A DNA stretch of 64,000 bases from Pseudomonadota bacterium (lineage in GTDB: Bacteria; Pseudomonadota; Alphaproteobacteria; Kiloniellales; J153), in contig JACZVL010000001.1 in NCBI GenBank assembly GCA_022572685.1, positions 3,914-67,913 on the forward strand, given 5' to 3'. A program made the position numbers and the translations under genes. Positions 4,155 through 41,842 of this stretch are shown here, piece by piece. The notes under the pieces are model-generated. The model did no database searches. It was given only the letters and a program-made list of their open reading frames with translations, and was not told where the DNA came from. Positions within the stretch are counted from its first letter, which is position 1, and the number at the start of each line of letters is the position of its first letter.

Positions 4155-5309
4155 GTGAAGGTCGTCAAACTGGAGGCCTATCCGACCCGGGTGGCCTACA
4201 AGCATACCGAAGTCAGCTCCCTGATCGCACGCGGCGGCGTGACCGATACGATTCTCAAGCTGACCACCGACGACGGCCTCGTCGGCTGGGGCGAGTGCAC
4301 CCGCGCCGCCGATGCGGCCGGGATCGAGAGCGCGGTCAAGGCGATGGCCCCCATGGTCCTGGGTCGGGATCCCTGGGACAAGGAGGCGATCCAGCGCGAT
4401 CTCTACATTGGCGGGCTCTGGGAATTCCAGCCGATGACCGGCAACTTCGCCTACGCCGGGATCGACATGGCGCTCTGGGATCTCTGCGGCAAGGCCTGCG
4501 GCCAGCCGCTCTATCGCCTGTTCGGCGGCGCCCTGCGCGAGGCGGTCGATTATTTCTATTACATGGAACGCGGCGACGAGGCCGAGATCGAGGCGCAAGG
4601 CCGCGACGGCGTCGCGCGCGGCTATACGGTCTTTTATCTCAAGGTCGGCATCGATTCCGACGCCGAGGCGGTCATGCTGGCGGCCCTGCGTCGTGCGATC
4701 GGGCCGGAGCGCAAGATCCGCATCGACGTCAACCAGGCCTGGAATCTGCCCCAGGCCGAACGCCTTCTGAACGCCTGGCACGAAGCCTACGACCTCGATT
4801 TCGTCGAGGCGCCGGTCCCGATCGACCCGGTCGAGAACTTCCTCGAACTAAAGCGCCGGGTCACGGTCCCGCTCTGCGTCAACGAGGGTTTGTGGCGCGA
4901 GGCCGATGCCTACCGCATCATCAAGAGCCGCTGCGCCGATTACCTCTGCTTCAGCTCCTACTGGGTCGGCTCGCTCAGCTGTTTTTTCAACCTGGTCCGG
5001 GTCGCGCATTTGGAGGGCTGGCAGATCTGCAAGCATACCCACGGTGAGCTCGGCCTGACCGCCGCCGGCCAACACATGATGCTCGCCGCACCGAATGCTT
5101 GCGACGGGCATCAACAGACCGCGCAGAATCTGGAAGGCGATATCCTGACCGAATCCTTGCCGATCGCGGATGGCCCCAAGTGGGGGCGCATCGAGCAGCC
5201 GGGGCTCGGCGTCGAGGTCGACGAAGACAAGCTCCTGGCCTTCCACGAGGCCTACCGCGAGCATGGCGAATTTCCACCCTACGGCGACCGCTTCCCTCTA
5301 CAGGGATAG
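4155..5309 (+). CDS. Enolase-superfamily enzyme (muconate cycloisomerase-like subgroup)
   Basis: 384 aa with GTG start. Motifs include LKVG, RIDVNQAW, FVEAP and LCVNEG. Divergent from the PhyH gene. Confidence 0.85.
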   Translation: MKVVKLEAYPTRVAYKHTEVSSLIARGGVTDTILKLTTDDGLVGWGECTRAADAAGIESAVKAMAPMVLGRDPWDKEAIQRDLYIGGLWEFQPMTGNFAYAGIDMALWDLCGKACGQPLYRLFGGALREAVDYFYYMERGDEAEIEAQGRDGVARGYTVFYLKVGIDSDAEAVMLAALRRAIGPERKIRIDVNQAWNLPQAERLLNAWHEAYDLDFVEAPVPIDPVENFLELKRRVTVPLCVNEGLWREADAYRIIKSRCADYLCFSSYWVGSLSCFFNLVRVAHLEGWQICKHTHGELGLTAAGQHMMLAAPNACDGHQQTAQNLEGDILTESLPIADGPKWGRIEQPGLGVEVDEDKLLAFHEAYREHGEFPPYGDRFPLQG

Positions 5310-5374
5310 GCGCGGGAGACACCGCCGCTACCGGTATTCCGCGCAACCTCGATCCGAGAATCACCAGGAAGACC

Positions 5375-5417
5375 GTCGGTGCGGCACCCGTCGTCAATGA
5401 TCGGTTGCCGCACCGAC
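5375..5417. terminator. Stem-loop between convergent genes (12-bp perfect stem GTCGGTGCGGCA/TGCCGCACCGAC, 19-nt loop)
   Basis: Inverted repeat read directly at 5375-5386 and 5406-5417. It sits between the stop of 4155-5309 (+) and the stop of the SBP fragment (-). There is no clear U-tract. Confidence 0.35.
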
Positions 5418-5425
5418 AGCAGAAA

Positions 5426-6421
5426 TTACTTGTCCTTCCACAATTCCCGGAACCGCGGAATCTGGTCGGCGATCCATTCGAAGCCGTGGACGTTCTTGCC
5501 CGTCGCCCCATACTCAACGGCAAAGAACAAGGGCACGTTCGGAATATCCTCGATCAGGATTTTCTGAACTTCCGAATACAGTGGTTTTCGCACCGCGAGG
5601 TCGTCGGTTCCGCGGGCCTCATCCAACAGCGCGTCCATCTTCGGATTGTTGTAGCCGGTGGAATTTGCAAAGCCCTTGCTGTGGAACAGGATGTACAGCA
5701 AACCATCCGGGTCGGGCCGTTGCGTCCAACGGGTCGGCGTGAAGTTGACGAGCCGCTTGACGACGCGACCGTACCATTCCTTCCGTGCCACAGGCTTGAT
5801 CGTGACCGTCATCCCGGCGGCCGCGAGCTGCTCTTGAACGAGCTGGCTGATCTGTTGATAGATGGAAGCGGTCGATGAATAGAGCACCAGCTCCGTACCC
5901 GGCTGGTAACCGGCCTTCACGAGGTATTCCTTCGCCTTGCCCACGTCATAGGAGTAGCTCTTGATGGTTTCATCGTACCACCATAGGCCCGGCGGTGTCG
6001 GGCCGTTGGCGATCTCGGCCTTGCCGGCCATGGTAATTTCCACGATCCGCTTGCGGTCGATGGCGTGCGCGATGGCCCGGCGGAGGTTGACGTTGTCGAA
6101 GGGCGCTTCATACACGTGCCATTGCAGCGAATACCACCTTCCGACCGTGGCCCGGTAGAGCTTGATGTCGGTGTTATTTTCTATCGGCCGAATATCGTTG
6201 GGTGAAAGCTGACCGACATAGTCGAGTTCACCGGTGGCGAGGCGCTGCAAGCCAACGATGGAGGCCGAGGTATCCTGGAAATTGACCGCGTCAAGATATG
6301 GCAACCCCTGTTCCCAATAATCCTTGTTGCGTTCCACCAGAATATGGCTGCCGCGCACCCATTCCTTGAAAACAAAGGCGCCTGTGCCGACCGGATTGCT
6401 GCCGAAATCCTTGCCCCATTT
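5426..6421 (-). pseudogene. 5'-truncated ABC transporter substrate-binding protein, peptide/nickel family 5 (C-terminal ~330 codons only)
   Basis: The reading frame stays open above the annotated Met as ...KWGKDFGSNPVGTGAFVFKEWVRGSHILVERNKDYW, then hits TAA at 6422-6424. The first ~190 aa and the signal peptide expected for this ~500-aa family are absent. No partner permease or ATPase genes are nearby. Confidence 0.7.
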
Positions 6422-6517
6422 TTACGGTTCTTGGCGCAGGGTAGGGCCTTCGAAAATCTCTGCTGTGTTCCGCTCTTTCCCGATATCGCGTATTGCGCGC
6501 TTTCTCATTTTGTCTTA

Positions 6518-6527
6518 TGGTATACCG
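6518..6527. promoter_or_regulatory. Candidate FadR-type GntR operator half-palindrome TGGTATACCg upstream of the LLM oxidoreductase gene
   Basis: 9/10 match to the perfect palindrome TGGTATACCA at 9743-9752. Lies in AT-rich DNA ~70 nt upstream of the ATG at 6595. Confidence 0.35.
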
Positions 6528-6594
6528 TATTATTAAACACGCCAAGCGTGGTTTATAAACCGGCATCGGCTCTTCGGATACAGAGGATAAGGCA

Positions 6595-7773
6595 ATGAAG
6601 TTCGGTTACTTCCACAATATTCACGACATCACGTTGAAGCGGGATTACGAGGATCTGCTGAACGAGATGCGTGAGATCGCGGCGATCTGCGACGATGGTG
6701 GCATCCACTGTTTCTGGTTGCCCGAACATCACTTCAGCATCTGGGGCCGCGAGTTGATGCCCAATCCGGTGCTCATGGCCGCCGACATCGGCGCTCGAAC
6801 CAAAAACATGCGGATCGGGCTGGCGGCGGCGATCATCACCTTTTGGCACCCCTTGCGCCTGGCCGAGGACATCTCTCTCCTGGACAATCTGATCGGAGGT
6901 CGCCTGGAGTTGGCGGTCGGGCGTGGCAACTACGGACTGGAAGCCTTGAATCTGAACCCGGCCGCCGATCCCAACGATCCAGAACGCAATTTCAAGGTCT
7001 TCAAGGAAACCTTCCACATTCTGAAAACGGCCCTGACTAATGAGCGGTTCTCCCACAAAGGAGATCTCTACACTTATCCGGCACCGGGATTCAAGGTGGA
7101 CCGGGCGCACACCGTCGATGACCCCGACTATATCGACCCGGAGACCGGGGAGCTGATTAAAATCTCGATCTATCCGCGGCCGAAGCAGACCCCCTATCCG
7201 CCCCTCTGGCAGGTGGTCAGCGCATCGCCCTTATCGCTTCAATTCGCGGCGGAGAACGACATGGGCATCATCATGTGGCGCCATCCGGTGAAGTTCCTCA
7301 AGAACCGGCTGCGCATGTATCGGGATTTTGCCTCGAAGGCCACCGGCCGGGAGCTCCCCTTCGGCGCCCGAACGGCTATTCTCCGTGACACCTATATCGC
7401 CGAGAGCGAAGCGGAGGCCCGTAAGATCGCCGGGGATGCTGTCATGGGTTCGTTCAATTTCAGCAACTGGCGCGGCCCCGGGGTCTACCTGAATCCCGAT
7501 GAGAAACTGGATCCGGAGCTTGAGGCCAGTCTCAACGACGAACTGACCTTTGATTTCGTGAACCAGCGGTCGCTGTTGTTCGGATCGCCCGAACAGGTCG
7601 TCGACAAGCTGATGGAGCTATGGGAGGAGACCCATATCGAGCAGGTGGCGTTCAAGTGCTCGTGGCCAGGTTTCCCCCACGAACACACCATCCGCAGCAT
7701 CAAACTTCTCATCGGTGAAGTGATTCCAGAAGTCAATCGGCGGCTTCAGGCACAGGCGAACGCCGCTGAGTGA
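6595..7773 (+). CDS. LLM-class (luciferase-like) flavin/F420-dependent oxidoreductase
   Basis: 392 aa with a bacterial luciferase-like TIM-barrel pattern (FWLPEHHF, RLELAVGRG, LLFGSPEQVVDKL). Confidence 0.85.
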   Translation: MKFGYFHNIHDITLKRDYEDLLNEMREIAAICDDGGIHCFWLPEHHFSIWGRELMPNPVLMAADIGARTKNMRIGLAAAIITFWHPLRLAEDISLLDNLIGGRLELAVGRGNYGLEALNLNPAADPNDPERNFKVFKETFHILKTALTNERFSHKGDLYTYPAPGFKVDRAHTVDDPDYIDPETGELIKISIYPRPKQTPYPPLWQVVSASPLSLQFAAENDMGIIMWRHPVKFLKNRLRMYRDFASKATGRELPFGARTAILRDTYIAESEAEARKIAGDAVMGSFNFSNWRGPGVYLNPDEKLDPELEASLNDELTFDFVNQRSLLFGSPEQVVDKLMELWEETHIEQVAFKCSWPGFPHEHTIRSIKLLIGEVIPEVNRRLQAQANAAE

Positions 7774-7785
7774 TTTTTCCGGCTT

Positions 7786-7845
7786 CCCACTGTCTGCCCC
7801 ACTGTCTGCCCCACTGCCCGCCCCACTGCCCGCCCCACTGCCCAC
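7786..7845. repeat. Tandem repeat, 5 x 12 bp (CCCACTGTCTGC x2, CCCACTGCCCGC x2, CCCACTGCCCAC)
   Basis: Read directly. Intergenic, between the convergent stops at 7773 (+) and 7851 (-). Confidence 0.9.
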
Positions 7846-7850
7846 ATCGT

Positions 7851-8831
7851 CTAGTGCCCGCTGTCCCGCGGCGGCCGCGGTTGATAGGCCGCCTCGAGGG
7901 CCGCGACGTCGTCTTCATCCAGACTGATATCGAGGGTCGCCAACGCCTCATCGATATGTTCCGGACGGGTCGCGCCAAAGATCGGCGCCGTAATTCCGGG
8001 TTGTTGCAGAACCCAGGCAAGGGCCACCTGTGCGGTGGTCAAGTTGCGGACGTCGGCGATCTTTTTTGTCGCCTCATAGACGGCGAAATCGCCATCCCGG
8101 TAATAGTACTTGTGAGTATATGAATCGCTCTCCGTCCGTCGGGTCGCGTTCTCGGTCCGCCGCCGGTCGGCACAAAGGAACCCGCGTGCGAAGGGGCTAA
8201 AGGGGATCAGCGCGACGCCCTCGGCGCGGCAAAGGGGGATCAGTTCCCTTTCCACTTCCCGATGGCAGAGATTGTATTCGCACTGCATGGACACGAAGGG
8301 CGGCGCCAGAGTCGTCGCCGCGATATGCTGAATCTTGGCGAAACACCACGCCGGCAGAGTCGTCACGCCGACGTATCGCACCTTTCCGGCACGGACCACG
8401 TCCGCGAATGCGTCGACCAATTCGTCCAAATTCGTCTCAGGGTCCCAGATGTGGGTTTGGTAGAGATCGATATAGTCCGTTTTCAAGCGCTTCAAAGAGG
8501 CATCGACCCCATCGAAGATGTGCTTGCGGGAAAACCCGCGAGCGTTCGGGTGGTCCGACATGGGGTTGCCAACCTTGGTGGCCACGATGACTTCGTCCCG
8601 GGGGGCGTATTCGAGAAGCGCGCGCCCCAGGATGGTTTCACTCTCGCCGATGGAATAGAAATCGCAGGTGTCGAAAAAATTGATGCCGCTGTCCAGCGCC
8701 TTTTTGATAATGGCCCGGCTATCGGAGTCGTCGAGCACCCATTCGCGCCAGTCGCGCGACCCAAACCCCATGGCCCCCAAGGCAAGGCGAGAGACTTTCA
8801 GATTGGATTTTCCGAATCGAATATACTGCAT
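7851..8831 (-). CDS. Aldo/keto reductase
   Basis: 326 aa. Contains SRLALGAMGFG, FFDTCDFY, DLYQTHIWD and the C-terminal IFGATRPEHIDEAL typical of the AKR family. Confidence 0.9.
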   Translation of the reverse strand: MQYIRFGKSNLKVSRLALGAMGFGSRDWREWVLDDSDSRAIIKKALDSGINFFDTCDFYSIGESETILGRALLEYAPRDEVIVATKVGNPMSDHPNARGFSRKHIFDGVDASLKRLKTDYIDLYQTHIWDPETNLDELVDAFADVVRAGKVRYVGVTTLPAWCFAKIQHIAATTLAPPFVSMQCEYNLCHREVERELIPLCRAEGVALIPFSPFARGFLCADRRRTENATRRTESDSYTHKYYYRDGDFAVYEATKKIADVRNLTTAQVALAWVLQQPGITAPIFGATRPEHIDEALATLDISLDEDDVAALEAAYQPRPPRDSGH

Positions 8832-8861
8832 CTCGGTCAGAGCGCTCCTTGGTCGGTAACG

Positions 8862-9569
8862 TCATGTGATGGATTCGTCTTCGTGTTCGCGTAGAACCTT
8901 GGCCGCAAATTTCGCCGACCTTTCAACGAATTCTCGGCAGTGCCTGGCCGTTGCCGGGGCGTCCCGGCGCAACGCCGCGTCAACGATCTCACGCATTCTG
9001 GCGTTGGTTTCCGCCTTGTATTCCGAATCCGACGCCTGCGCGGTCAATGCGCGGAGATAGTTCATGCGGGCCCGCAAGGTGCGGAGAACGGCCTTGGCCA
9101 CGTCGTTTCCCGCGCCGGTCAACAAAACCTCGTAAAATTCGTCGAGAGCCTGCACGTAGGGCATGACGGTGGATTTCTTGACCGATTTTTCCAACCGATT
9201 GAAGGCAGCTTCCAGGGCCTTGAGCTCCTTGTCGCTGGCCCGCTTGACGAACATCCGACCGGCGGCGGATTCGAGTGACGCACGGACTTCGTAAATTTGC
9301 CACGCCTCACCGGCGGATACCGTCGCCACGTAGAGGCCCTTGTTCTGGACCCGTTTGACCAGGCCCTCCGATTCCAGGTGTTGCAAGGCTTCGCGAACAC
9401 AAGTCCGGCTGACACCCGTCTGTTCACATAAGGAGCGCTCGATCAATCTTTGTTTGGGTTTGAAATGCATGCTGAGAATGGCGTTCCTCAGAGCCTCGGT
9501 CGTCAACTCGCGAAGATTCGGAGAGCTCTTGACTACTCTGATTGCGTCATTGGCGGTCAAATTCGTCAT
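8862..9569 (-). CDS. GntR-family transcriptional regulator, FadR subfamily (N-terminal wHTH plus FCD domain)
   Basis: 235 aa. The wHTH is LIERSLCEQTGVSRTCVREALQHLESEGLVKRVQNKGLYV, followed by an all-helical C-terminal domain. Confidence 0.9.
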   Translation of the reverse strand: MTNLTANDAIRVVKSSPNLRELTTEALRNAILSMHFKPKQRLIERSLCEQTGVSRTCVREALQHLESEGLVKRVQNKGLYVATVSAGEAWQIYEVRASLESAAGRMFVKRASDKELKALEAAFNRLEKSVKKSTVMPYVQALDEFYEVLLTGAGNDVAKAVLRTLRARMNYLRALTAQASDSEYKAETNARMREIVDAALRRDAPATARHCREFVERSAKFAAKVLREHEDESIT

Positions 9570-9570
9570 C

Positions 9571-9621
9571 CCGTGGTTCCTGTCTGGCCGTGGTTCCTGT
9601 TTGGCCGTGGTTCCTGTCTGG
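9571..9621. repeat. Tandem repeat, 3 x 17 bp (CCGTGGTTCCTGT[C/T]TGG), starting 2 nt upstream of the GntR start codon
   Basis: Read directly. On the coding (minus) strand each unit reads CCAGACAGGAACCACGG, so each contains an AGGAA Shine-Dalgarno-like core. Confidence 0.9.
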
Positions 9622-9742
9622 GCCGCGCCGGCTTGTCGACCATCGCGCCATGGCGCAGCAAAGACCTCAGCTTATACCCCAGATTCCAATAAATCCCAGA
9701 TCCCCCAGAAATCTCCCTAGGTTGTACAATATTATTGTATAA

Positions 9743-9752
9743 TGGTATACCA
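9743..9752. promoter_or_regulatory. Perfect 10-bp palindrome TGGTATACCA (FadR-type GntR operator candidate) in a divergent promoter region
   Basis: Fits the T.GT...AC.A type consensus known for FadR-subfamily GntR operators. Lies between the GntR gene (-) and the hydrolase gene (+), next to TTGTACAA at 9722-9729. Confidence 0.4.
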
Positions 9753-9786
9753 TAAATAAATCGAAGCACAACAAGGAGCTGGACTG

Positions 9787-10563
9787 TTGTCCCCAAATAT
9801 TCGATTCTTGGTCGAGGGTGAAGGTGATCCCATTACGTTAATTCACGGTGTCGGCTCTAATCTTGAGAGCTGGGATCAGGTCGTCCAGCGTCTACAGGCT
9901 AAATTCTCGGTGCTCCGCATGGATTTGCGGGGGCAGGGCCAATCGAGAGGCATCACCGCCGACTGCACGCTGGAGGATTTCGTCGCCGATGTCCTCGGTG
10001 CCATGGACGCGGCTGGCTTCGGTAAATCCGATCTCATCGGATTTTCCCTTGGCGGAATGATCGCACAACTGTTCGCCCTCACCCATCCGGAACGGGTTGA
10101 CCGCCTCGCCCTTATCAGTGCCGTCGCTGGGCGCACGCCGGAAGAAAAGCAGCGGCTCGCGCAAAGGGCCACAAAGATACGTGAAGAAGGCGTTGGATCG
10201 GTGATCGGCGCCTCCGCCCAGCGCTGGTTTACCGACGCGTTTCTCCGGGCCCATCCCGAGAAGGTGGAACAACGGCTCAAGGAGCTGCTTGAAAACGATC
10301 CGGCATCCTATGCCGAGGCCTATCGTATCTTTGCGGAAAGCGATGTCGGGGACCGTATACACGGCATCCGTCACCGGACTCTGATCGCCACCGGCGAACA
10401 TGATGTCGGCTCCAATCCCCGTATGGCGCGTTTCATGCACGATCAGATCTCGAATTCCGAATTGGTTATCTTTCCGGACCTTCGACACAGCCTTTTGGTC
10501 GAGGCTCCGGATCAGGTCGCCGACCTCATATCGAAATTTCTCGGTGGGCGCTCTCACCCTTGA
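9787..10563 (+). CDS. Alpha/beta-fold hydrolase (3-oxoadipate enol-lactonase-like)
   Basis: 258 aa with TTG start. Contains oxyanion HGVGS, the nucleophile elbow GFSLGG and a C-terminal histidine region (DLRHSLLVE). Confidence 0.85.
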   Translation: MSPNIRFLVEGEGDPITLIHGVGSNLESWDQVVQRLQAKFSVLRMDLRGQGQSRGITADCTLEDFVADVLGAMDAAGFGKSDLIGFSLGGMIAQLFALTHPERVDRLALISAVAGRTPEEKQRLAQRATKIREEGVGSVIGASAQRWFTDAFLRAHPEKVEQRLKELLENDPASYAEAYRIFAESDVGDRIHGIRHRTLIATGEHDVGSNPRMARFMHDQISNSELVIFPDLRHSLLVEAPDQVADLISKFLGGRSHP

Positions 10564-13313: not shown

Positions 13314-14324
13314 GGGCATGTAGCCGTTTTCTTTGTAGAACTTGATAGCGCCGGGATGCAGCGGCGCGGTGCCGACGTTCTGCCAGGCGACCTCCGGCCG
13401 GTAGTACTTGTGCATCCTGTGCACTTTCCAGAACTCTTCCTTGTGGGCGGCCAACGCCGCCGTCATCTTGTAGACCAGATCGTCGGACAGGCCGGTCCTG
13501 ACGCCGAAGGTGACGATCGTCGCCGGCGACCAGTAGGCGTCATTGGTGCCGTTGTTGTCGGCGTAGATGTCGGCCGGAACCTCCATGATATCCTGGCCGA
13601 ATTTCTTCGCGACCTGCTCGGCGACTTCCTTGCTGAGCGGCAACAGCCTGAACGGCCTCTTGGCGCCTAACTTTATGTACTGAGAATGGGGGAAATAGGA
13701 CCCGCCGGTAAACCACATGTCGACCAGGCCGTCCATCATCATCCGGATACCCTCGCCAATGGACGTGAAGATGACCTTGCCGCCCATCGACTCGATTTTC
13801 TCGACGGTGAGGCCGTAGGCCTCGAGCATGGCCAGCGCCTGACCGGTGGCGAGCTGGTGGCGCTCGAACATCGCGATCTTGATCGGGTAATTTTTCTCCA
13901 GAATTTCTTCGAAGGTCTTGATACCGGCGGACTCGACGATCACCGCTTGCGCGGCGCCGGGCTGGCGGAACGCCGCCAGCATGCGGAAGTCGTACTTCTT
14001 GCCGGTCGGTCCGGTGCCTTCCCAGGCCATGCTGGCCAAAGCGTTTTCGAGCACCGCGATGTCGGCGGTTTCGGCCGCGGCGTCGATCCGTTCGATGTTG
14101 GCCCAACCGCCCCCCGGAATCACCGTCGTCGAGGTGCCGGGAATTTCGGCCTTGATGTATTCCGCGAAGGCCGCGGCGGCCTTGAAATAGCCACCACCGG
14201 GCGACCCGGCGGTCAATGTGAGGCTTTCGCCGGCGAAAGCGGGTCCGGACCAGCCGAAAGCAAGAAGTATGGCCGCCGCGGCCGCGCGCCGCACCGTCAT
14301 CGTGATCTCATGTCGAATAGCCAT
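13311..14324 (-). CDS. TRAP transporter solute receptor, TAXI family
   Basis: 337 aa with a signal peptide (AAAAILLAFGWSGPAFA). Contains the TAXI-type motifs LTAGSPGGGYF and GGGWANIERI. Confidence 0.9.
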   Translation of the reverse strand: MAIRHEITMTVRRAAAAAILLAFGWSGPAFAGESLTLTAGSPGGGYFKAAAAFAEYIKAEIPGTSTTVIPGGGWANIERIDAAAETADIAVLENALASMAWEGTGPTGKKYDFRMLAAFRQPGAAQAVIVESAGIKTFEEILEKNYPIKIAMFERHQLATGQALAMLEAYGLTVEKIESMGGKVIFTSIGEGIRMMMDGLVDMWFTGGSYFPHSQYIKLGAKRPFRLLPLSKEVAEQVAKKFGQDIMEVPADIYADNNGTNDAYWSPATIVTFGVRTGLSDDLVYKMTAALAAHKEEFWKVHRMHKYYRPEVAWQNVGTAPLHPGAIKFYKENGYMP

Positions 14325-14518
14325 GGATTTTCCTCCCGATTTGTAGCGGCCCGTCGTTTTTCATTTTGCCGCGGAAACCGCCACCCCAGGGGACGGAACC
14401 GGCTAGTTTGTCGGCCGCGTGCGCTTGTCTGCGCGATCACAATCAAAAATAGCGCCGCGTCATTGCTAAACGTTGTACCATTTCATCCAATGTCCGACCT
14501 ATAAGGCAAATTCAAAGA

Positions 14519-14552
14519 ATAGATATCACATATAGAGTTTCTATATATCTAT
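14519..14552. promoter_or_regulatory. Inverted repeat ATAGATAT-N18-ATATCTAT in the TAXI-TRAP promoter region
   Basis: Read directly in AT-rich DNA upstream of 14324 (-). Adjacent to AATTCAAAGAA at 14509-14519, a motif shared with the LysR divergent promoter. Confidence 0.3.
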
Positions 14553-14597
14553 CTGCGCCCCTGCCACTCATGGGGGGATCGGCTGCCGCGGTCGCCG

Positions 14598-15467
14598 CTA
14601 AACCGATCTCATTTCTTCCGCAAGCTCGAAGAACGCACGTATGGCCCGGTTGTCCTTGCGCTCCTCCAGGCACACGACGTTCACCTGGGCGACGAAATCG
14701 ACATCGCGGATGCGAAGCTTGCACACCGACTGCTCCGGAATCAGCCCCTCGTCGAAGATCATCGCCACACCCACGTTCAGCGCCGCCGCCGCGACCGTCC
14801 CTTCCCGGCTGCCGATCTCGATCACACTGCCGGGTTTCAGGTTGTGGTGCCGCTCCATCTCAACATAGATGCGCCGCAACTCGGACCCGGACTCCCGGAG
14901 AATCAAGGGCTGGCCGTTCAGCTCCCGTACGTCGATCGACTTGCGCCGGCTCCACGGGTGCGTCTTGCCGACGATGGCGATCAGGCGGGACTGGTTGTAG
15001 GCCAAGGTATGAAACTCGGCGCGCCGTTCGACGCGGCTGAACACGGCGATGTCGATGGCATGCCCGAGGATATCGTCCTGAAGCCGCTGGGAATTGGCGA
15101 AACCGAGAGACGAATCGAGATCCGGATAGCGCTGATGAAAGGCCGAGAGCAACTCGATCACGTGGTAGGGGCCGTAGGCGCCGATTCGCATCTGTCCGGT
15201 GTGCAGACCCTGAACCGCCTGCAGATATTCCACGGCATCTTGCTGGTTCGCATAAATTCGCCGGACGATCGACAGCAACTCCTGCCCGGTCGCGGTGAGG
15301 CTTACGCCCCGGCCGTGCCGGTGAAAGAGCTCGACTCCGTAGAGCGTTTCCAAGTCCTTGACTTGCGTGGTGACCGTTGGTTGGCTGACGTTCAGGGCCT
15401 TGGCGGCGGCTGTGAAACTGCCGGCGTTGGCGACCGCAAGAAAGGCCCGAGCCTGGGTCGGAGACAT
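14598..15467 (-). CDS. LysR-family transcriptional regulator
   Basis: 289 aa. N-terminal HTH (FLAVANAGSFTAAAKALNVSQPTVTTQVKDLE) followed by a LysR substrate-binding domain. Confidence 0.9.
   Translation of the reverse strand: MSPTQARAFLAVANAGSFTAAAKALNVSQPTVTTQVKDLETLYGVELFHRHGRGVSLTATGQELLSIVRRIYANQQDAVEYLQAVQGLHTGQMRIGAYGPYHVIELLSAFHQRYPDLDSSLGFANSQRLQDDILGHAIDIAVFSRVERRAEFHTLAYNQSRLIAIVGKTHPWSRRKSIDVRELNGQPLILRESGSELRRIYVEMERHHNLKPGSVIEIGSREGTVAAAALNVGVAMIFDEGLIPEQSVCKLRIRDVDFVAQVNVVCLEERKDNRAIRAFFELAEEMRSV

Positions 15468-35342: not shown

Positions 35343-35350
<8 letters not shown>
34526..35350 (+). CDS. livG: ABC transporter ATP-binding protein (LivG type)
   Basis: ATG 34526, an ATGA overlap with livM. 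Contains Walker A GPNGAGKTT, LPYGEQRLLEVAVAL and Walker B LLLLDEP. The track ORF start at 33533 is read-through. Confidence 0.9.
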
Positions 35351-36047
<697 letters not shown>

Positions 36048-36150
36048 TCGGTAGTGACTCAGTCTGGAATTATAGGGAAGTGCGCGCCCGTCACTGGGTC
36101 AGGAATATGGTTAACGACGCAATGCGGAAAGTGAGGTAAGACTGGGGAAA

Positions 36151-36179
36151 AAGAAAGTTGCCAAAGAAGCAACTTTCTT
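36151..36179 (+). terminator. Stem-loop AAGAAAGTTGC-CAAAGAA-GCAACTTTCTT downstream of livF
   Basis: 11-bp perfect stem read directly, followed by T-rich sequence (GATTTTCGTGTTTTG). Confidence 0.4.
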
Positions 36180-36369
36180 AGCATGATTTTCGTGTTTTGT
36201 CAATTCACAAAATTACTCCATATTCCAGTATAGTGTAGGCCAGTAGGTCGGAAAATTGGAGAAATATGTCTAAGGGTCCCGAGGACAGAAGCGCCCTGCC
36301 GATATTGTCGGTTGTGCCGTTGCGGTCGCCAGGATCGCGACTGGTGAGGCCGAGGAGGAGTTAGGCAAA

Positions 36370-36483
36370 GTGTCTGGCCGAAGGAAAAGCGGCAAGGTGG
36401 GCGCTGTGGCTCGCGCCGCAGTGCTGACAGCGGACCAACGAAGCGCTATCGCCAAAAAGGCAGCGGCTGCAAGATGGGGATAA
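36370..36483 (+). CDS. Possible small basic ORF (37 aa from GTG; frame open from 36274) with an ...QRSAIAKKAAAARWG tail
   Basis: Its stop (TAA 36481-36483) overlaps the ATG at 36474 of the next gene. There is no canonical start for the longer 70-codon open frame. Confidence 0.3.
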   Translation: MSGRRKSGKVGAVARAAVLTADQRSAIAKKAAAARWG

Positions 36484-37040
36484 GCGAGAATATGTTTAAA
36501 GTCAGGAAAGCAGCACAAGTCGCAGCGTATTTTGCCATGGCAGAAGGCGGAAGCATCAAGGTGCTGAAGCTGGTTAAACTGATCTATTTGGCTGATCGGG
36601 AGTTCTTGGAGCGCTATGACGCCACGATCTTGAATGACAGGTTTGTTTCGATGAATCACGGACCAGTCAATTCAACGACCTATGACTACATCAAGGGTTG
36701 TGAGGAGGATCGTGATAATTGGGAAGAATTTATCGACGACCGCACGGAGCATCGGGTCGGCTTGGCACGCGAAAATATTTCTGAGGACGATTTAGGCGAA
36801 CTCAGCGATGCTGAACTTGCGGTGCTTGCGGACGTGTGGCGGCAGTTTGGCCACATGGATGGTTTTGAGATTCGCGATTGGACTCATGATAATTGTCCAG
36901 AATGGGAAGACCCGAATGGCTCATCCCAATCAATACCATTTGCGCGGGTTCTAAGTTACTTGGGCAAATCCAATGTGCGTGAACTCGCGGCAGGAATTGA
37001 AGCAGAAAGAACTCTCGACAGACTTTTTGCGTCTGATTAA
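36474..37040 (+). CDS. DUF4065/Panacea-domain protein (SocA/GepA-like putative antitoxin)
   Basis: 188 aa. Contains ...AAYFAMAEGGSIKVLKLVKLIYLADREFLERYDATILNDRFVSMNHGPVNSTTYDYIK..., which matches my recollection of the DUF4065 pattern. An alternative start is ATG 36492 (MFKVRK...). Confidence 0.7.
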   Translation: MGISENMFKVRKAAQVAAYFAMAEGGSIKVLKLVKLIYLADREFLERYDATILNDRFVSMNHGPVNSTTYDYIKGCEEDRDNWEEFIDDRTEHRVGLARENISEDDLGELSDAELAVLADVWRQFGHMDGFEIRDWTHDNCPEWEDPNGSSQSIPFARVLSYLGKSNVRELAAGIEAERTLDRLFASD

Positions 37041-37438
37041 TGCCCTACCAGGCTGTGAAGCGGGGTACGCTTCTGATCCCGTCAGGACCAGTCATTTATC
37101 CAGATCAATTACACCTTCATGTGATTCTCACGGACTCTTGTGAGAACAATCGTCATTTGCTCGTTAACATCTCGACGATAAGAGATGGTGCATTTTATGA
37201 TCCGACATGTGTAGTTGAACCCGGGGAGCACTCCTCAGTAACCAAGCGAAGTTGGGTCGTGTATAGGCGGGCGGTGACTCTCCATGCTGACTACATTAAA
37301 AATTGCGTAGATGGATGGTCTTTCAAGCCCAAGGAAGAGGTTCCAGAAGGGTTATTTGCGCGTATTTGTGACGGTGTGGGCGCATCCAGTTTCACCCCGC
37401 GGGATATGAAGCGATATTTCGTGGCTAACAATTCTTGA
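37040..37438 (+). CDS. Hypothetical 132-aa protein, candidate cognate toxin of the Panacea-like gene (no recognisable family)
   Basis: Its ATG overlaps the upstream stop (TAATG at 37038-37042). The ORF fills the rest of the islet, and its codon usage is AT-rich like its partner's. Confidence 0.6.
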   Translation: MPYQAVKRGTLLIPSGPVIYPDQLHLHVILTDSCENNRHLLVNISTIRDGAFYDPTCVVEPGEHSSVTKRSWVVYRRAVTLHADYIKNCVDGWSFKPKEEVPEGLFARICDGVGASSFTPRDMKRYFVANNS

Positions 37439-37497
37439 TATTAATAAGATGCTTGATATAGCGATTTCTCTTGCACTACCGGGTGATTGTGGGCGGG

Positions 37498-38655
37498 TCA
37501 GGAACGGCCGAACAGCGCCTTGAGGCGCGCCCAGAGCACCGAAAACAGCAAGCCCCCGGCATCGAGTTTGGCCTCGAGGGGGGCCGGCGCGGCCTGGCCG
37601 CTGGCCTCGGCGTCGAGCTGCGCCTGGAGGTTCTCGGCGAAGGCGGCGGTCAGGCGGCCGGCCAGATCGGTCACGATCCCGGCGCGGCTGAACTGGGCCA
37701 GCGGGCCGGCCAGCGCGAAGGCGACCTCGATCTCGACCCGGGTCGCCCCGTCCCCCTGCTCGATCAGGCGGTAGGCGATCCGCCCCTTGGCCCGGGTCGC
37801 GCTGCGCTGGTCGCGGCCGCTGCCCTCGATGATCCCCCGGTACGCGGCCTGGTCGAGCGCCAGGGTCGCCGCGCCGGCGAAGGTCGCCCCCATGGGTCCG
37901 AGCTTGATCGCGATGCGGCCCACCAGGTGGCCGTCGCGCGGCGGCTCGGTGAGCGCCGCGCCGGGCATGCAGGCCGCGACCCGTTCCACGTCCTCGAACA
38001 TCGCCCAGACCCGCGCCCGGGGATGGCGCACCACGAAGCTTTGCGCAAGCGTGGTCATGCCCGCGTCGGGCCCCGCGGAGGTCATGCCGGGCACCGTGGG
38101 GGCCACCACGGCGGGTCGGGGTATCGGCGCGGCCGGCCCGCGCACGACGGCGGGGGACGGCGCGGATACCCCTGCCTCGCCCGCGGCCCGGCGTTCCTCG
38201 AGCACGCGGCGCACCGCGGCCACGATCCCGGCATAGCCCGTGCAGCGGCAGAGATTGCCCGCGAGTTCGACCCGGACGCGGGCCTCGTCCGCCTCGGGCA
38301 GGCGGGTCGCGATGTCGCGTGCCGCGATCAACATGCCCGGGGTGCAGTAGCCGCACTGCAGGGCATGTTCCTGCGTAAAGGCCTGGCGCAGCCGCGCCAT
38401 CACCGGGTCGTCGTCGAAGCCTTCGATGGTGCGCACCTCGGCGCCGTCGCAGGCGATCGCGAAGATGATGCAGGCGCGGGCGATCTGGCCGTCGATTTCG
38501 ACCGTGCAGGCGCCGCAGACACCGTGCTCGCAGCCGAGACGGGTGCCGGTCAGCAACAGCTGCTCGCGCAGGAAGTCGGCCAGGTGGGTGCGCGGCTCGA
38601 CCGCGGCGGTCACGGCCTTGCCGTTGACGGTGAGGGTGACGGTGGCCGCGGTCAT
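37498..38655 (-). CDS. Fusion protein: [2Fe-2S] CoxS-like small subunit plus C-terminal CoxG-like SRPBCC domain
   Basis: Starts MTAATVTLTVNGK at ATG 38655, an ATGA overlap with the upstream gene. The N-terminal half has [18 protein letters not shown] and CRCTGY. A Pro/Ala linker follows. The C-terminal half (FVVRHPRARVWAMFEDVERVAACMPGA...) ends ...VLWARLKALFGRS, like the free CoxG at 20968-21546. Confidence 0.85.
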   Translation of the reverse strand: MTAATVTLTVNGKAVTAAVEPRTHLADFLREQLLLTGTRLGCEHGVCGACTVEIDGQIARACIIFAIACDGAEVRTIEGFDDDPVMARLRQAFTQEHALQCGYCTPGMLIAARDIATRLPEADEARVRVELAGNLCRCTGYAGIVAAVRRVLEERRAAGEAGVSAPSPAVVRGPAAPIPRPAVVAPTVPGMTSAGPDAGMTTLAQSFVVRHPRARVWAMFEDVERVAACMPGAALTEPPRDGHLVGRIAIKLGPMGATFAGAATLALDQAAYRGIIEGSGRDQRSATRAKGRIAYRLIEQGDGATRVEIEVAFALAGPLAQFSRAGIVTDLAGRLTAAFAENLQAQLDAEASGQAAPAPLEAKLDAGGLLFSVLWARLKALFGRS

Positions 38656-39461
38656 GACAGGGTCCGGATCGCGCGTTCGAGGGCGACCGCGTGAATCTGC
38701 AGGCTGTAGGCGTCGGCCCCCAGGCCGCCCTCGCGCAGCAGCTCGACCACCGCCGCGCGGTCGCTCCGCGCGACCAGCCGGCTGGCGTCCTCGATGACGA
38801 TGGGCCGGGATTCGGTGGCCCCGGCCACGGCGCGGCAGACCCCGCGCTCGGGATCGTGCAGCACCGCGCCGATGGCGTGGGCGAACTCGCCGGGCTTGCG
38901 GTTCACCTTGTAGTAGCCCCAGCGCGCGCCGGCGCCCAGGCGGGGCACGCGCACCGCCTCCAGGATCTCGTCGGCCTCGAGCGCCGTCTCGAACCCGCCG
39001 CGCATGAACTCGGCCACGGCCAGTTCGCGGCGGCCGGAGGGGCCGTGGACGACGATCTCGGCGCCGAGCGCGGTCAGGCAGGTGATCCAGTCGGCCGCGG
39101 GGTCGGCGTGCGCCAGGCTGCCGCCGATGGTGCCGCGGCTGCGCACGGCGCGATAGGCGATGCCCTGGGCGACCGCCGGCAGCACCCCGCCGGTCACGTC
39201 CGGCACGCGGCCGTCCTCGATCGCCGCGTGGGTGGTGCAGGCGCCGAGCAGCACGCCGTCGCCATCCTCCTCGACCCGGGTGAGCTCGGGGATCCGCGTG
39301 ATGTCGACCAGCAGGTCCGGCTGCACCAGGCGCAGATTGAGCATCGGCCCGAGCGACTGCCCGCCGGCCAGGCACTTCACGACGGTTCCGCGCGTGCCCA
39401 GCAGCGCCACCGCCTCACCGAGGCTGGCGGGCCGCGCGTAGTCGAAGCGGGCCGGCTTCAC
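38652..39461 (-). CDS. Molybdenum hydroxylase FAD-binding medium subunit (CoxM-like), second copy
   Basis: 269 aa. GTG start in a GTGA overlap with the large-subunit stop. Contains LAGGQSLGPMLNLR and RGTIGGSLAHADPAAD. Confidence 0.9.
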   Translation of the reverse strand: MKPARFDYARPASLGEAVALLGTRGTVVKCLAGGQSLGPMLNLRLVQPDLLVDITRIPELTRVEEDGDGVLLGACTTHAAIEDGRVPDVTGGVLPAVAQGIAYRAVRSRGTIGGSLAHADPAADWITCLTALGAEIVVHGPSGRRELAVAEFMRGGFETALEADEILEAVRVPRLGAGARWGYYKVNRKPGEFAHAIGAVLHDPERGVCRAVAGATESRPIVIEDASRLVARSDRAAVVELLREGGLGADAYSLQIHAVALERAIRTLS

Positions 39462-41842
39462 GATCCGCCGCCTTGCGCCCCATCTCGCTGCGCCCCATCT
39501 CGCTGTGCCCCATCTCGCTGCGCCTTCGCGATGGCGGCCAGTAAGCGGCGCGGCGTGATCGGCGTTTCGGTGACCTCGGCGCCGAGCGGCCGGAGCGCGT
39601 CGTTGACCGCGTTGGCGATGGCGGCCGGCGGGGCGATGGCGCCGCCCTCGCCGATGCCCTTGACGCCGAACTCGGTATAGGGCGAGAGCGTCTCCATGTG
39701 CCCGATGCGCAGGGAAGGCACCTCGGTGGCGCCTGGGATCAGGTAGTCGGCGAGGGTCGAGGCGAGCGGCTGGCCGGCCGCATCGAAGGGCATCTCCTCA
39801 TAGAGCGCGGTGCCGATGCCCTGGGCCGCGCCGCCCTGAATCTGGCCGTCGACGATCATCGGATTGACCAGCTTGCCGCCGTCCTCGATCACCACGTAGT
39901 CGAGGATCTCGACCGCGCCGAGCTCCGCATCGACCGCCACCACCACGGCGTGGCTGGCGTAGCTGAAGGTCCCCGAATCCCGTTCCGGCTTGTAGCCGGC
40001 GGTGATCTCCAGGCCGGCCGGATCGACATCGTCGGGCAGGTCCTGGGGGCGCAGGTACCAGACCTGGGCGACCTCGTCGATGCCGACGCTGCCGGCCGCC
40101 CCGCGCACCCGCCCGTCTTCGAGCGCGACCTCCGCCACCGGCACCTGAAGCAGGCCGGCACCGATCTTCATAATCCGCCCCGCCAGCGCGCGGCAGCCGG
40201 TCGCGACCGCGCCGCCGGCCATGACCATGCAGCGCGAGCCCCAGGTGCCGGTCGAGTAGGGCGTGAGCTGGGTATCGCCGTGGACCACCTTCACCTTGTC
40301 GATGGCGATGCCGAGGATCTCGTTGACCACCTGCGCCAGGGTGGTTTCCAGGCCCTGGCCGTGGGAATGCACGCCGACCCGGACCTCGAGCCCGCCATCG
40401 GGGGTGATCCGCAGCGCGGCCTGCTCGTGGCCCGGCACCATGGGGATGCCCCAGCCCGCATAGACCGAGGTGCCGTGGGCCGCCTGCTCGCAGTAGATCG
40501 CCAGGCCGAGGCCGATCAGCCGGCCGTCGGCCTCGCCCCGCTGCTGGCGCGCGCGGACCGCGGGCAGGTCGATCTCGGCGACCGCGCGGCGCAGCGATTC
40601 GGGGTAGTCGCCGCTGTCGAAGTGCTTGCCCGTGATGTTGTCGAAGGGCATGGCCTCGGGCGGGACCAGGTTCTTGAGCCGCACCTCGTGGGGTTCCAGC
40701 CCGGCCTCGCGCGCGATCGCATCGATGATCAGCTCCATGGCGAAGCAGACCCCGGTCCGGGCGACGCCGCGGTAGGGCATGATCGGCGACTTGTTGCTGG
40801 CCACCGACCAGGTCCGGCAGCGGTAGACCGGCAAATCGTAGGGTCCCGGCAGGATGCTGCCGATCTGGGCCGCCTCCAGGCAGGCGGAGAAGGGATAGAT
40901 GGAGTAGGCGCCGGAATCGACCGTGGCCTCGGCGTCGATGGCGAGCAGCCGGCCGTCGGCCTCGGCATAGGCGGTGATCAGGTAGTGGTGCTCGCGGCAG
41001 TTGGCGCCCGCGGTCAGGTGCTCGCGCCGGTCCTCGATCCAGCGCAGCGGGTGCCCGAGCCGCATGGTCAGCCACGACAGGCAGACCTCCTCGGGCAGCA
41101 GGACGCCCTTGTAGCCGAAGCCGCCGCCGACATCGGGCGCCACCACCCGGACCTGGCCGTGATCGAGGCCCAGGCACTCGCACAATCCGGTCCGCGTGAC
41201 ATGGGGCATCTGGGCGGCGCTGTGGACGATCAGCTGATCGAGCCGTGGGTCCCAGGCGGCGACCACGCCGCGGCCCTCGATCGGCATCATGCACTGGCGC
41301 GCGGTCCGCAATTCGCGGGTGACCCGGATCGCCGCCTTGTCCTTGACCGATTCCACGTCACCGTCGACCAGGGACTCGAGAAAGACGTTGTCGCCCCATT
41401 CCTCGTGGACCAGGGGCGCATCGGGCGCGCGCGCCGCGATCATGTCGACCACCGCCGGCAGCTCCTCGAAATCGACCTCGATCTCGGCCGCGATGTCCTC
41501 GGCCTCGGCGCGCGTGTCGGCGACGCAGGCCGCGATCGCCTCGCCGACCTGGCGCACCTTGTTCCGGGCCAGGCAGGGCTGTTCGGAGGGCTTGAAGCCG
41601 GGCAGGCTGGAGACCGCCCGGATCGGTTTCACGCCCGCCAGGTCGGCCGCCGTGAACACCGCGTCGCGCCATTTCCCGGGGATATGGATGTCGCCGATGC
41701 GGGCGTGGGCGAGCGGGCTGCGCAGGAACGCCACTTCCTTCATGCCGGGCAGCTTGATGTCGGCGACGAATTGGCCGCGGCCGCGCAGGTAGCGGTCGTC
41801 TTCCTTGCGCGGGACAGACTTGCCGACCCCCTGCCCGGACAT
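39458..41842 (-). CDS. Molybdopterin-binding large subunit (CoxL/xanthine dehydrogenase family), second copy
   Basis: 794 aa. Contains GKSVPRKEDDRYLRGRGQFVAD. The active-site-region motif is YRGVARTG. The C-terminus carries the repeat-encoded (AQRDG)x3. Confidence 0.9.
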   Translation of the reverse strand: MSGQGVGKSVPRKEDDRYLRGRGQFVADIKLPGMKEVAFLRSPLAHARIGDIHIPGKWRDAVFTAADLAGVKPIRAVSSLPGFKPSEQPCLARNKVRQVGEAIAACVADTRAEAEDIAAEIEVDFEELPAVVDMIAARAPDAPLVHEEWGDNVFLESLVDGDVESVKDKAAIRVTRELRTARQCMMPIEGRGVVAAWDPRLDQLIVHSAAQMPHVTRTGLCECLGLDHGQVRVVAPDVGGGFGYKGVLLPEEVCLSWLTMRLGHPLRWIEDRREHLTAGANCREHHYLITAYAEADGRLLAIDAEATVDSGAYSIYPFSACLEAAQIGSILPGPYDLPVYRCRTWSVASNKSPIMPYRGVARTGVCFAMELIIDAIAREAGLEPHEVRLKNLVPPEAMPFDNITGKHFDSGDYPESLRRAVAEIDLPAVRARQQRGEADGRLIGLGLAIYCEQAAHGTSVYAGWGIPMVPGHEQAALRITPDGGLEVRVGVHSHGQGLETTLAQVVNEILGIAIDKVKVVHGDTQLTPYSTGTWGSRCMVMAGGAVATGCRALAGRIMKIGAGLLQVPVAEVALEDGRVRGAAGSVGIDEVAQVWYLRPQDLPDDVDPAGLEITAGYKPERDSGTFSYASHAVVVAVDAELGAVEILDYVVIEDGGKLVNPMIVDGQIQGGAAQGIGTALYEEMPFDAAGQPLASTLADYLIPGATEVPSLRIGHMETLSPYTEFGVKGIGEGGAIAPPAAIANAVNDALRPLGAEVTETPITPRRLLAAIAKAQRDGAQRDGAQRDGAQGGGS
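39475..39524. repeat. In-frame tandem repeat, 3 x 15 bp (G[C/T]GCCCCATCTCGCT) plus a partial unit, at the 3' end of the large-subunit gene
   Basis: Read directly. Encodes AQRDGAQRDGAQRDG and lies 14 nt upstream of the medium-subunit GTG start. Confidence 0.9.

Follow-up and report, generated by a model that had tools for sequence, protein, structure and literature searches.

How did a segment of foreign composition come to lie between the stop codons of two convergent genes, with no mobility gene of its own? The question is posed by a 64,000-nucleotide (nt) stretch of an alphaproteobacterial genome (Pseudomonadota bacterium, Kiloniellales, J153; GenBank assembly GCA_022572685.1, contig JACZVL010000001.1, positions 3,914 to 67,913 of the forward strand), which we call the window. 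In it, a low-GC islet of 1.4 kb separates a livF-type transporter gene from a coxS-coxG fusion gene (coxSG). An earlier note, made from the sequence alone, had described this islet as an insertion bracketed by short direct repeats and had suggested that it arrived by an unrecognised mechanism or had lost its mobility genes. Taking together its composition, its alleles in related genomes and its coding content, we consider it likely that the islet is a horizontally acquired, self-contained toxin-antitoxin (TA) operon of the PanA/PanT type, which entered by a target-duplicating integration and then spread as an allele.

A foreign segment at a convergent gene junction

The native left flank is a livF-type branched-chain amino-acid ABC transporter ATPase gene (35343-36047, + strand; Pfam ABC_tran, E=9e-32, and BCA_ABC_TP_C), which ends with a TGA stop codon at 36045-36047. 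The right flank is coxSG, coding for a 2Fe-2S subunit fused to a CoxG domain (37498-38655, - strand; Pfam Fer2_2, 1e-24, COXG, 2e-11, and Fer2); its stop reads TCA on the + strand at 37498-37500, so that the two genes are convergent. Sliding-window GC and tetranucleotide analysis bore out the fall in composition after the livF stop and its recovery at the coxSG stop. In 200-nt windows the GC fraction is 0.62-0.73 to the left of 36047, 0.43-0.59 within the islet and 0.73-0.79 on the right side, and two hand counts of G+C made earlier (26/60 for 37081-37140 and 46/60 for 37561-37620) were exact on recount. At the 1.4-kb scale the islet has a GC content of 0.49, against 0.665±0.042 in all non-overlapping windows (minimum 0.559), and in tetranucleotide usage it is the top outlier, lying at a distance of 0.63 from the remainder of the window where the median is 0.26.

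Three open reading frames (ORFs) on the same strand fill the islet. None of them encodes an integrase or a transposase, and neither tRNA nor tmRNA genes were detected anywhere in the window, in agreement with the absences reported before; no integrase was seen in the examined parts of the window and no Rfam match within 35500-38000. The proposal that foreign DNA was inserted at a convergent-gene junction without a mobility gene is supported by these data.

Filled and empty alleles

Ten metagenome contigs, some of them filled and some empty at this site, encode an identical LivF protein, and by blastn the flanks of these same-species contigs are 98.3-99.4% identical to the window. The junction is empty on seven of them (L081-L084, L087, L088 and L090; flanks 98.5-99.4% identical) and filled on two (L086 and L089), to which a further filled allele found via the toxin gene (L091) can be added; one contig (L085) breaks off at the junction. 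Six more distant relatives (L109-L113 and L118; 80-92% identity), all of them empty, came from scanning metagenomes for the CoxG half of the right-hand protein. The full CoxS-CoxG protein as query had given only relatives of at most 53% identity, the patterns being dominated by the conserved 2Fe-2S peptide. The islet itself is present at 84-91% identity in L104, L106, L107 and L108. L106, which belongs to a sister species, is filled at this locus, yet its livF is 97.5% identical to that of the empty allele L118 and 88% identical to that of the window; the sister species is therefore polymorphic too.

Empty-site alleles, for which the earlier note had proposed to look, were thus found in the same species, in the outgroups and in the sister species. 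That note had also named two observations that would speak against an insertion. One of them, that all relatives carry the segment at the same place, fails with seven same-species and six outgroup alleles empty; the other, a chance-level frequency of the border motifs, is taken up below, and neither holds in full. The insertion is the derived state, and presence and absence of the islet segregate as a polymorphism; at the livF/coxSG junction the islet breaks no promoter and no reading frame.

Most outgroup junctions consist of livF-TGA, a G-rich spacer of 12-27 nt, TCA and GGAGCGGCCGAACAGCGCCTTGATGCGCGCCCAGAGCACC, and their CoxSG proteins end in ...LFGRS*, as in the window, whose coxSG stop and final codons are of this outgroup type. 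The same-species empty alleles have a 16-nt overlap of livF with coxSG, and their CoxSG terminates in ...LFGADHPPR* (389 aa): the usual stop is lost and the ...HPPR* tail is read from the antisense of the livF end, as it also is in L113. Given that the overlap-type junction recurs in this outgroup, the same-species empty allele is a natural variant and no excision scar. The C-terminal length polymorphism of CoxSG is independent of the islet.

These comparisons also fix the borders. Against the same-species empty alleles the break falls at 36051|37508, and a first boundary drawn from them (36052-37507) placed the coxSG stop inside the insert; it was revised on the strength of the outgroup junctions, the overlap type being found in L113 as well. 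Measured against the outgroups, the coxSG stop and the spacer are native, and the foreign core (GC 0.49) then runs from about 36096 to 37473 on the + strand, a segment that is absent from the seven same-species and six outgroup alleles.

A target duplication of about 55 bp

Three pairs of short direct repeats had been reported at the borders, and each lies where it was placed: CGGGTGAT at 36041-36048 and 37480-37487, GGGCGGGTSA at 36038-36047 and 37491-37500, and GGGTCAGGAA at 36096-36105 and 37495-37504. The window has 4 occurrences of the first motif (3.1 expected), 3 of the second (1.05 expected) and 3 of the third (0.07 expected), the copy of the third at 46951 being unrelated; an exact 8-mer is common to 4.4% of random site pairs lying 1.3-1.6 kb apart in the window. 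Taken alone, the repeat pairs are weak evidence, near chance expectation as short motifs. Comparison of the alleles separates them. The CGGGTGAT pair is the left edge of a real duplication, whereas the other two pairs are out of register: of the two GGGCGGGTSA copies, one belongs to the end of livF and the other to the spacer with the coxSG stop, and the GGGTCAGGAA pair links a piece of the islet with the region of the coxSG stop and is conserved at 8/10 positions in the sister species.

The duplication is best preserved in L106. There the left junction reads livF-TGA TCGCCCTGTGAG TCAAGAACGGCCAAACAGCGTCTTGATGCGGGCCCA, followed by the islet, and amounts to a second copy of the spacer, the stop and the last 33 nt of coxSG; L104 independently has the same left copy. 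The left copy of L106 matches its own right copy at 35/46 positions (z=11), the real coxSG end of the window at 32/37 (z=14.7) and the empty allele L111 at 41/48 (z=9.9). The right junction in both species has the order ...CACTAC, CGGGTGA, spacer, TCA and coxSG, and the empty alleles align exactly from CGGGTGA on. In the window this junction (37474-37497, + strand) comprises CACTAC, a pseudo livF end CGGGTGA (37480-37486) and the spacer TTGTGGGCGGG (37487-37497), which resembles the spacers of the L118, L109 and L106-right types. The twin CGGGTGA at 36041-36047 (+ strand), made of the final livF codons and stop, is the left edge of the duplicated target and directly precedes the spacer in every empty allele. 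The filled allele has the form (CGGGTGA-spacer-TCA...GCCCA)-islet-(CGGGTGA-spacer-TCA...GCCCA), a direct target duplication of about 55 bp as it stands in the best-preserved copy; the duplicated segment takes in the stop codon of livF, the spacer and 36 nt at the 3' end of coxSG.

In the window the left copy (36048-36095, + strand), the positional homologue of the L106 and L104 left copies, is a degenerate version of spacer, TCA and the last ~33 nt of coxSG. It is nearly erased, with TCG, GTGA, TCA and TGCGCGCCC remaining in order; a global alignment gives z=2.5 (p≈0.016), and a local alignment is not significant. Repeats derived from the target and resembling the attachment sites attL and attR, such as bound cis-mobilizable elements (CIMEs), are present in L106 and L104, and their edges alone are recognisable in the window. 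An ungapped repeat finder run on L092, L099, L106 and L107 missed the gapped duplications.

A Panacea antitoxin and its predicted MazF-fold partner

The content of the islet had been missed in the first description: it is a module of a Panacea antitoxin and a putative MazF-fold toxin, of a kind commonly found as a small islet without an integrase. The gene panA (36474-37040, + strand) encodes a stand-alone Panacea-domain (SocA-like, DUF4065) antitoxin of Pfam family PF13274; an alternative start at 36492 (182 aa) is better conserved. Its product matches PF13274 with E=2.1e-24 and 87.1 bits (gathering score 25.7) over profile positions 1-112 of 113, and phrog_1281 with E=1.4e-29. The NCBIfam SocA equivalog NF047745 scores PanA at 27.5 bits, far under its cutoff of 190, and PanA is therefore not a SocA orthologue. 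Ratios of nonsynonymous to synonymous substitution rates (dN/dS) of 0.08-0.22 between the window and its relatives indicate purifying selection on panA.

Downstream, panT (37040-37438, + strand) starts within the panA stop, the two genes overlapping by 1 nt (TAATG), and encodes a 132-aa putative toxin. The protein belongs to no Pfam, NCBIfam or PADLOC family, and PADLOC models match none of the three islet ORFs; it does match phrog_19071, of unknown function, with E=5e-25. A word-indexed search recovered 14 relatives, and a profile built from them matched 3226 cluster representatives at E<=1e-3 and 1545 at E<=1e-10, the clusters being drawn at 50% identity. Searched with the same profile, the sequences of the Protein Data Bank (PDB) returned no match to a solved structure. 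A confident AlphaFold2 model computed from the 14-sequence alignment (predicted local distance difference test, pLDDT, 90.4; predicted template-modelling score, pTM, 0.86) has an N-terminal beta-barrel followed by helices. When this model was compared with the PDB by Foldseek, the top 45 matches were all MazF/PemK-type toxins, with CcdB coming after them (best E=3.3e-4, probability 1.0, template-modelling (TM) scores 0.55-0.65), so that the predicted structure falls within the SH3-like barrel fold of MazF and CcdB. The toxin gene, too, is under purifying selection (dN/dS 0.16-0.44, window versus relatives).

Gene context points the same way. Every toxin homologue whose context was read, in 11 metagenome contexts (among contigs L092-L108) and in phage, prophage and plasmids, has a Panacea gene immediately upstream, overlapping it or lying within ~30 nt. 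The pair is found in the P2-like Pseudomonas phage Sirocco; on an Endozoicomonas plasmid, where it is annotated 'Panacea domain-containing protein' and 'hypothetical protein'; and in an Escherichia coli prophage found in 208 of the 5426 complete genomes of that species. As far as sequence can tell, this conserved pairing of coupled genes is the signature of a PanA-PanT toxin-antitoxin pair.

Some individual contexts deserve mention. Escherichia phage Lys8385Vzw (L130, MT225100.1, 25726-26714) has a homologous Panacea and toxin pair (~36% identity) directly beside its integrase gene, and in E. coli RM8385 (L131) the prophage toxin is annotated solely as 'hypothetical protein' (WP_014640052.1). 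On the Phaeobacter inhibens plasmid pP54_a (L129, 923-2699) the PanA-toxin pair is followed by a convergent gene for an 'abortive infection family protein', and the toxin ORF is left unannotated in the record.

Recombination across the locus

How the islet reached this particular genome can be read from its flanks. Between the window and L106 the synonymous divergence (dS) is 0.13 for panA and panT and 0.33-0.35 for livF and coxSG; these values make the islet younger than the divergence of the two host species. Over 37678-37824 the coxSG gene of L106 agrees with the window species at 96-99% identity; from 38179 on, its identity is 93-99% to L113 but only 73-83% to the window. The left target copy of L106 has a spacer of the L111 type, and the type of its own species (L118) stands in the right copy. 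In the species of the window, the single-nucleotide polymorphisms between filled and empty alleles form a mosaic, with the greatest density over the first 300 nt of coxSG. These patterns indicate frequent homologous recombination across the locus, both between strains and between sister species, with flanks that are mosaic. For the presence of the islet in this genome the 'unrecognised mechanism' proposed earlier is needless, since spread at this locus, among strains and sister species, is explained by homologous recombination of the flanking core genes.

Followed along 37535-38470, the alignment of L106 with the window shows ~150 nt at 96-99% identity and then 49-83%, while identity to L113 is 93-99%. 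The linker between the CoxS and CoxG domains (~38000-38200) is rich in insertions and deletions.

A second locus and distant copies

A search for the islet elsewhere, which had also been proposed as a check, found it at a second, unrelated locus. In L107 and L108 an islet 84% identical over 36111-37431 lies between a short-chain dehydrogenase/reductase gene and a fumarylacetoacetase-family gene. L127 is the empty allele of this second locus (flanks 92% and 89% identical), and relative to it 1569 bp replace 12 nt. The L107 insert has imperfect direct repeats of ~75 nt at both its ends (z=5.6; 1 of 1000 shuffles reaches the score), and a comparison of these repeats with L128, which tests whether they are native intergenic sequence, was not significant. 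A resemblance of the left insert end of L107 to the livF/coxSG junction, noticed by eye and in one alignment, was withdrawn, since against shuffles it gives z≈0.

More distant copies in L102, L103 and L105 have only the coding part, 36445-37438, in common with the islet. The ends are therefore not those of a conserved mobile element. A related low-GC islet (0.48-0.52) with a PanA-toxin pair occurs in L092 (3138-4592), at an unrelated site in a high-GC genome (0.63-0.70).

Beside the L092 islet lies a 117-aa ORF that looks, by eye, like a fragment of an IS1595/ISXO2-type transposase. In L099, three to four tandem copies of the 13-nt unit GGTTCGCACGTCT are found at 4232-4280, ~450 nt upstream of panA.

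The original integration

Homologous recombination of the flanks moves an islet that is already in place; its first arrival is a separate event. In the scheme that we favour, a single first integration would have duplicated ~55 bp of the target, either through a circular intermediate recombining at the target segment (Campbell-type) or through an att-type event with the recombinase supplied in trans. A duplication of ~55 bp fits a single crossover of a circle with the chromosome, RecA- or integrase-mediated, unlike the products of transposases, and it is from this that we infer a Campbell- or att-type event. From then on the islet would have moved between related genomes as an allele, via homologous recombination in livF and coxSG.

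Several points weigh against this reading. The Campbell-type model presupposes that the incoming molecule already had homology, which it leaves unaccounted for at the very first insertion. The ~75-nt repeats of L107 are unrelated in sequence to the livF/coxSG junction (z≈0). The left copy in the window has diverged more than the islet dS of 0.13 predicts, and the left junctions may have separate histories. L106 is a contig from an NCBI metagenome assembly, and its mosaicism could partly be assembly chimerism. On the functional side, the similarity of the toxin to MazF is at the level of the predicted fold alone, with TM scores of 0.55-0.65 and extra C-terminal helices, and the PanA-linked predicted mRNases of E. 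coli MOD1 and Salmonella phage Emek (cluster T1) were non-toxic in E. coli (PMC8832971).

The earlier suggestion of lost mobility genes, that is, of a decayed integrative element, survives as a live but minority option, with the ~55-bp duplication pointing to a Campbell- or att-type event over a transposase. In this alternative, which we regard as unlikely, a larger element (a prophage, an integrative and conjugative element or an integrative and mobilizable element) integrated site-specifically at the livF/coxSG junction and lost everything but the TA module; the repeats of the islet are attL and attR, and it is CIME-like and still mobilizable in trans by a related integrase. The direct repeats do cover gene 3' ends, like many att sites, and CIMEs are known to keep attL and attR while losing their integration and transfer genes (PMC5704250). 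The toxin family is present in temperate phages and plasmids, and in the E. coli prophage Lys8385Vzw the homologous PanA-toxin pair stands beside the integrase, next to an att end. However, there is no trace of other element genes, and the operon nearly fills the space between the repeats (leader ~55-170 nt, trailer 35 nt), an outcome that a random internal deletion is unlikely to leave; the same compact unit, moreover, is found in two species and at the second locus. The unrelated repeats of that locus argue against one integrase with one att core, the examined parts of the window contain no integrase, and among the ~20 contexts read in a limited search there was no integrase-bearing parent at the same att site. 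The likeness to a CIME lies in a recombinase-less cargo between direct repeats that include target gene 3' ends (PMC5704250); the islet differs in that its repeats have diverged, one copy being of another species' type, and in the unrelated repeat pair at the second locus.

The ~55-bp duplication and the ~75-nt repeats of the second locus (z=5.6), mutually unrelated as they are, also form the basis of a more speculative idea, to which we give little credence: small TA cassettes of this PanAT family may integrate without a recombinase of their own, duplicating 50-80 bp of target. If true, this would be a not-yet-described insertion route, for example capture at widely staggered breaks or, alternatively, the action of a hairpin-guided enzyme in trans, with the invariant-stem hairpin of the islet leader, described below, as its handle.

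That the islet is a non-autonomous element of the transposon or cassette kind, recognised by its terminal repeats or a hairpin and mobilised by an enzyme whose gene lies elsewhere, comparable to a miniature inverted-repeat transposable element (MITE), a palindrome-associated transposable element (PATE) or an integron cassette, is very improbable. Such an element would account for an islet at two unrelated loci and for the hairpin near the left end, the stem of which is strictly conserved, and in the window an 8-nt perfect inverted repeat, CGGTAGTG (36049-36056) and CACTACCG (37474-37481), does lie at the borders given by the same-species break. This inverted repeat was rejected as an element end: the sister-species copy L106 lacks it and has TCGCCCTGTGAG at its left border, so that it is lineage-specific and probably due to chance. 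The 55-bp duplication far exceeds the 2-15 bp of known bacterial transposases, L102, L103 and L105 share the coding part without the islet ends, and the window holds no second copy of those ends. The islet has neither the conserved terminal inverted repeats nor the short target-site duplication of MITE-like elements.

Least credible of all is that there was no insertion, the segment being ancestral and the empty alleles deletions: the same-species empty junction is unusual (16-nt overlap, ...GADHPPR tail) and could resemble a deletion scar, and the sister species also carries the islet, but six outgroup lineages (80-92%) have a single intact junction (TGA, 12-27-nt spacer, TCA) without the islet, the overlap-type junction recurs in the outgroup L113 as an independent natural variant, no simple deletion between the repeats of the filled allele reproduces the empty sequence, the GC of 0.49 and the tetranucleotide usage are foreign, and filled alleles hold two target copies where empty ones hold one.

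Relation to known toxin-antitoxin systems

The closest counterparts of the target-duplicating TA operon that we favour are the PanA-PanT pairs. Kurata et al. (2022, PNAS, PMC8832971) validated such pairs, including toxins that have no CDD match, show a MazF fold by HHpred and block translation; the Pseudomonas moraviensis pair of that study (cluster T6) has the order antitoxin-toxin with a -1 overlap. The islet shares with these systems a stand-alone Panacea antitoxin that lacks an N-terminal domain and lies upstream of a small toxin gene, a 1-nt overlap equal to the -1 distance of P. moraviensis, a toxin without a CDD or Pfam match but with a predicted MazF-like fold, and a family distributed over chromosomes, phages and plasmids. 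It differs in having a third, small upstream gene, intact in L105 only. Salmonella phage Emek (T1) was not among the tblastn matches of the islet toxin, and the accessions of the E. coli homologues, WP_014640052.1 and WP_000458584.1, do not appear in the accessible part of the supplement of Kurata et al.

By analogy with these pairs, PanT would be a MazF-fold growth inhibitor, most likely one that cleaves RNA and blocks translation, and PanA would most likely neutralise the translationally coupled toxin by direct binding. Persistence by addiction and/or abortive phage defence has been proposed for PanAT (PMC8832971; Ernits et al. 2023, PNAS, PMC10440598), and the islet pair could likewise persist by addiction, by aborting phage infection, or by both.

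Two better-known systems bear a partial likeness to the islet pair. With SocAB of Caulobacter crescentus, a type VI TA system, it has the antitoxin domain PF13274 in common, SocA being the founding Panacea-domain protein. SocB is an inhibitor of DnaN. The predicted MazF-fold partner in the islet is no SocB, and the role of SocA as a ClpXP adaptor is not indicated for the islet PanA. With MazEF, PemIK and Kid-Kis, and with CcdB, it shares the predicted toxin fold (Foldseek probability 1.0, TM 0.55-0.65). There is no detectable sequence similarity to the toxins of the MazEF/PemIK group, and the protein falls outside Pfam PemK_toxin; the antitoxin is a globular Panacea protein instead of a MazE/AbrB- or ribbon-helix-helix-type protein, and at its C-terminus the toxin carries two or three helices more than MazF. 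In the model the conserved 'NISTI' strand appears to sit where MazF has its catalytic Thr-containing strand. A counterpart of the catalytic Arg of MazF is not evident, and the residue in that region would be the invariant His25.

As to its genomic situation, chromosomal type II TA loci of E. coli are reported to have been acquired as small integrase-less intergenic insertions (Ramisetty and Santhosh 2016, FEMS Microbiol Lett, as cited in PMC6379469). The islet resembles those loci in being small, foreign in composition, variable between strains and without mobility genes of its own; it differs in organism and TA family, and here both alleles, the outgroups and a target duplication are documented. 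The islet is a PanAT module in a commonplace genomic situation, the ~55-bp target duplication being its sole non-routine feature. It would offer a clean natural example of a TA module as a selfish or defensive cassette, with a harmless landing at gene ends, its own candidate promoter and spread as an allele. The toxin family is large (>3,000 clusters) and without a Pfam model, and it is annotated 'hypothetical protein' everywhere, several temperate phages and 208 complete E. coli genomes included; for annotation it is of value to identify it as the putative MazF-fold partner of Panacea antitoxins.

Upstream elements and the small first gene

The leader of the operon contains the hairpin mentioned above (36151-36179, + strand), with an 11-bp perfect stem, AAGAAAGTTGC / GCAACTTTCTT, and a 7-nt loop. 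The stem is invariant in five alleles (the window, L086, L104, L106 and L107), and the loop differs among them in sequence and length (7, 8, 11, 11 and 12 nt), varying even between two same-species contigs with identical stems. A run of T follows the hairpin on the minus strand, and the structure could serve as a terminator or an insulator. Downstream of it a consensus scan picked out a sigma-70-like promoter candidate (TTGTCA, 16 nt, CATATT; 36197-36224, + strand), in a block conserved across the islet copies.

The first gene of the operon (36266-36483, + strand) is small, ~72 aa when intact with the C-terminus ...AIAKKAAAARWG, and comparison with L105 marks it as a pseudogene here. An intact 72-aa version is found solely in L105 (288-506), where it reads MPKGPKGQTRPGNVVGCAV...KKAAAARWR. 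The window and L086 carry a frameshift by a 1-nt deletion near 36277, L104 and L106 one by a 9-nt deletion plus a 2-nt insertion, and L107 one by a distinct 1-nt deletion. These three independent frameshifts imply that the small gene is dispensable in the chromosome; an accessory gene of the cassette has decayed independently three times. The small gene matches no Pfam, PADLOC or NCBIfam family and gives a weak match to phrog_2384.

Other features of the window

A milder low-GC stretch lies at ~5300-10300 and 14300-14600, where 300-nt windows go down to 0.49-0.57; its genes are routine ones of metabolism and transport, coding for a solute-binding protein, an aldo/keto reductase, a luciferase-like monooxygenase and regulators of the GntR and LysR types, and no integrase was seen in it. 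The gene for a 794-aa molybdopterin subunit (39458-41842, - strand) encodes the C-terminal tandem repeat AQRDG AQRDG AQRDG AQGGGS, a peptide repeat (at ~39460-39520) that arises from a 15-nt tandem DNA repeat.

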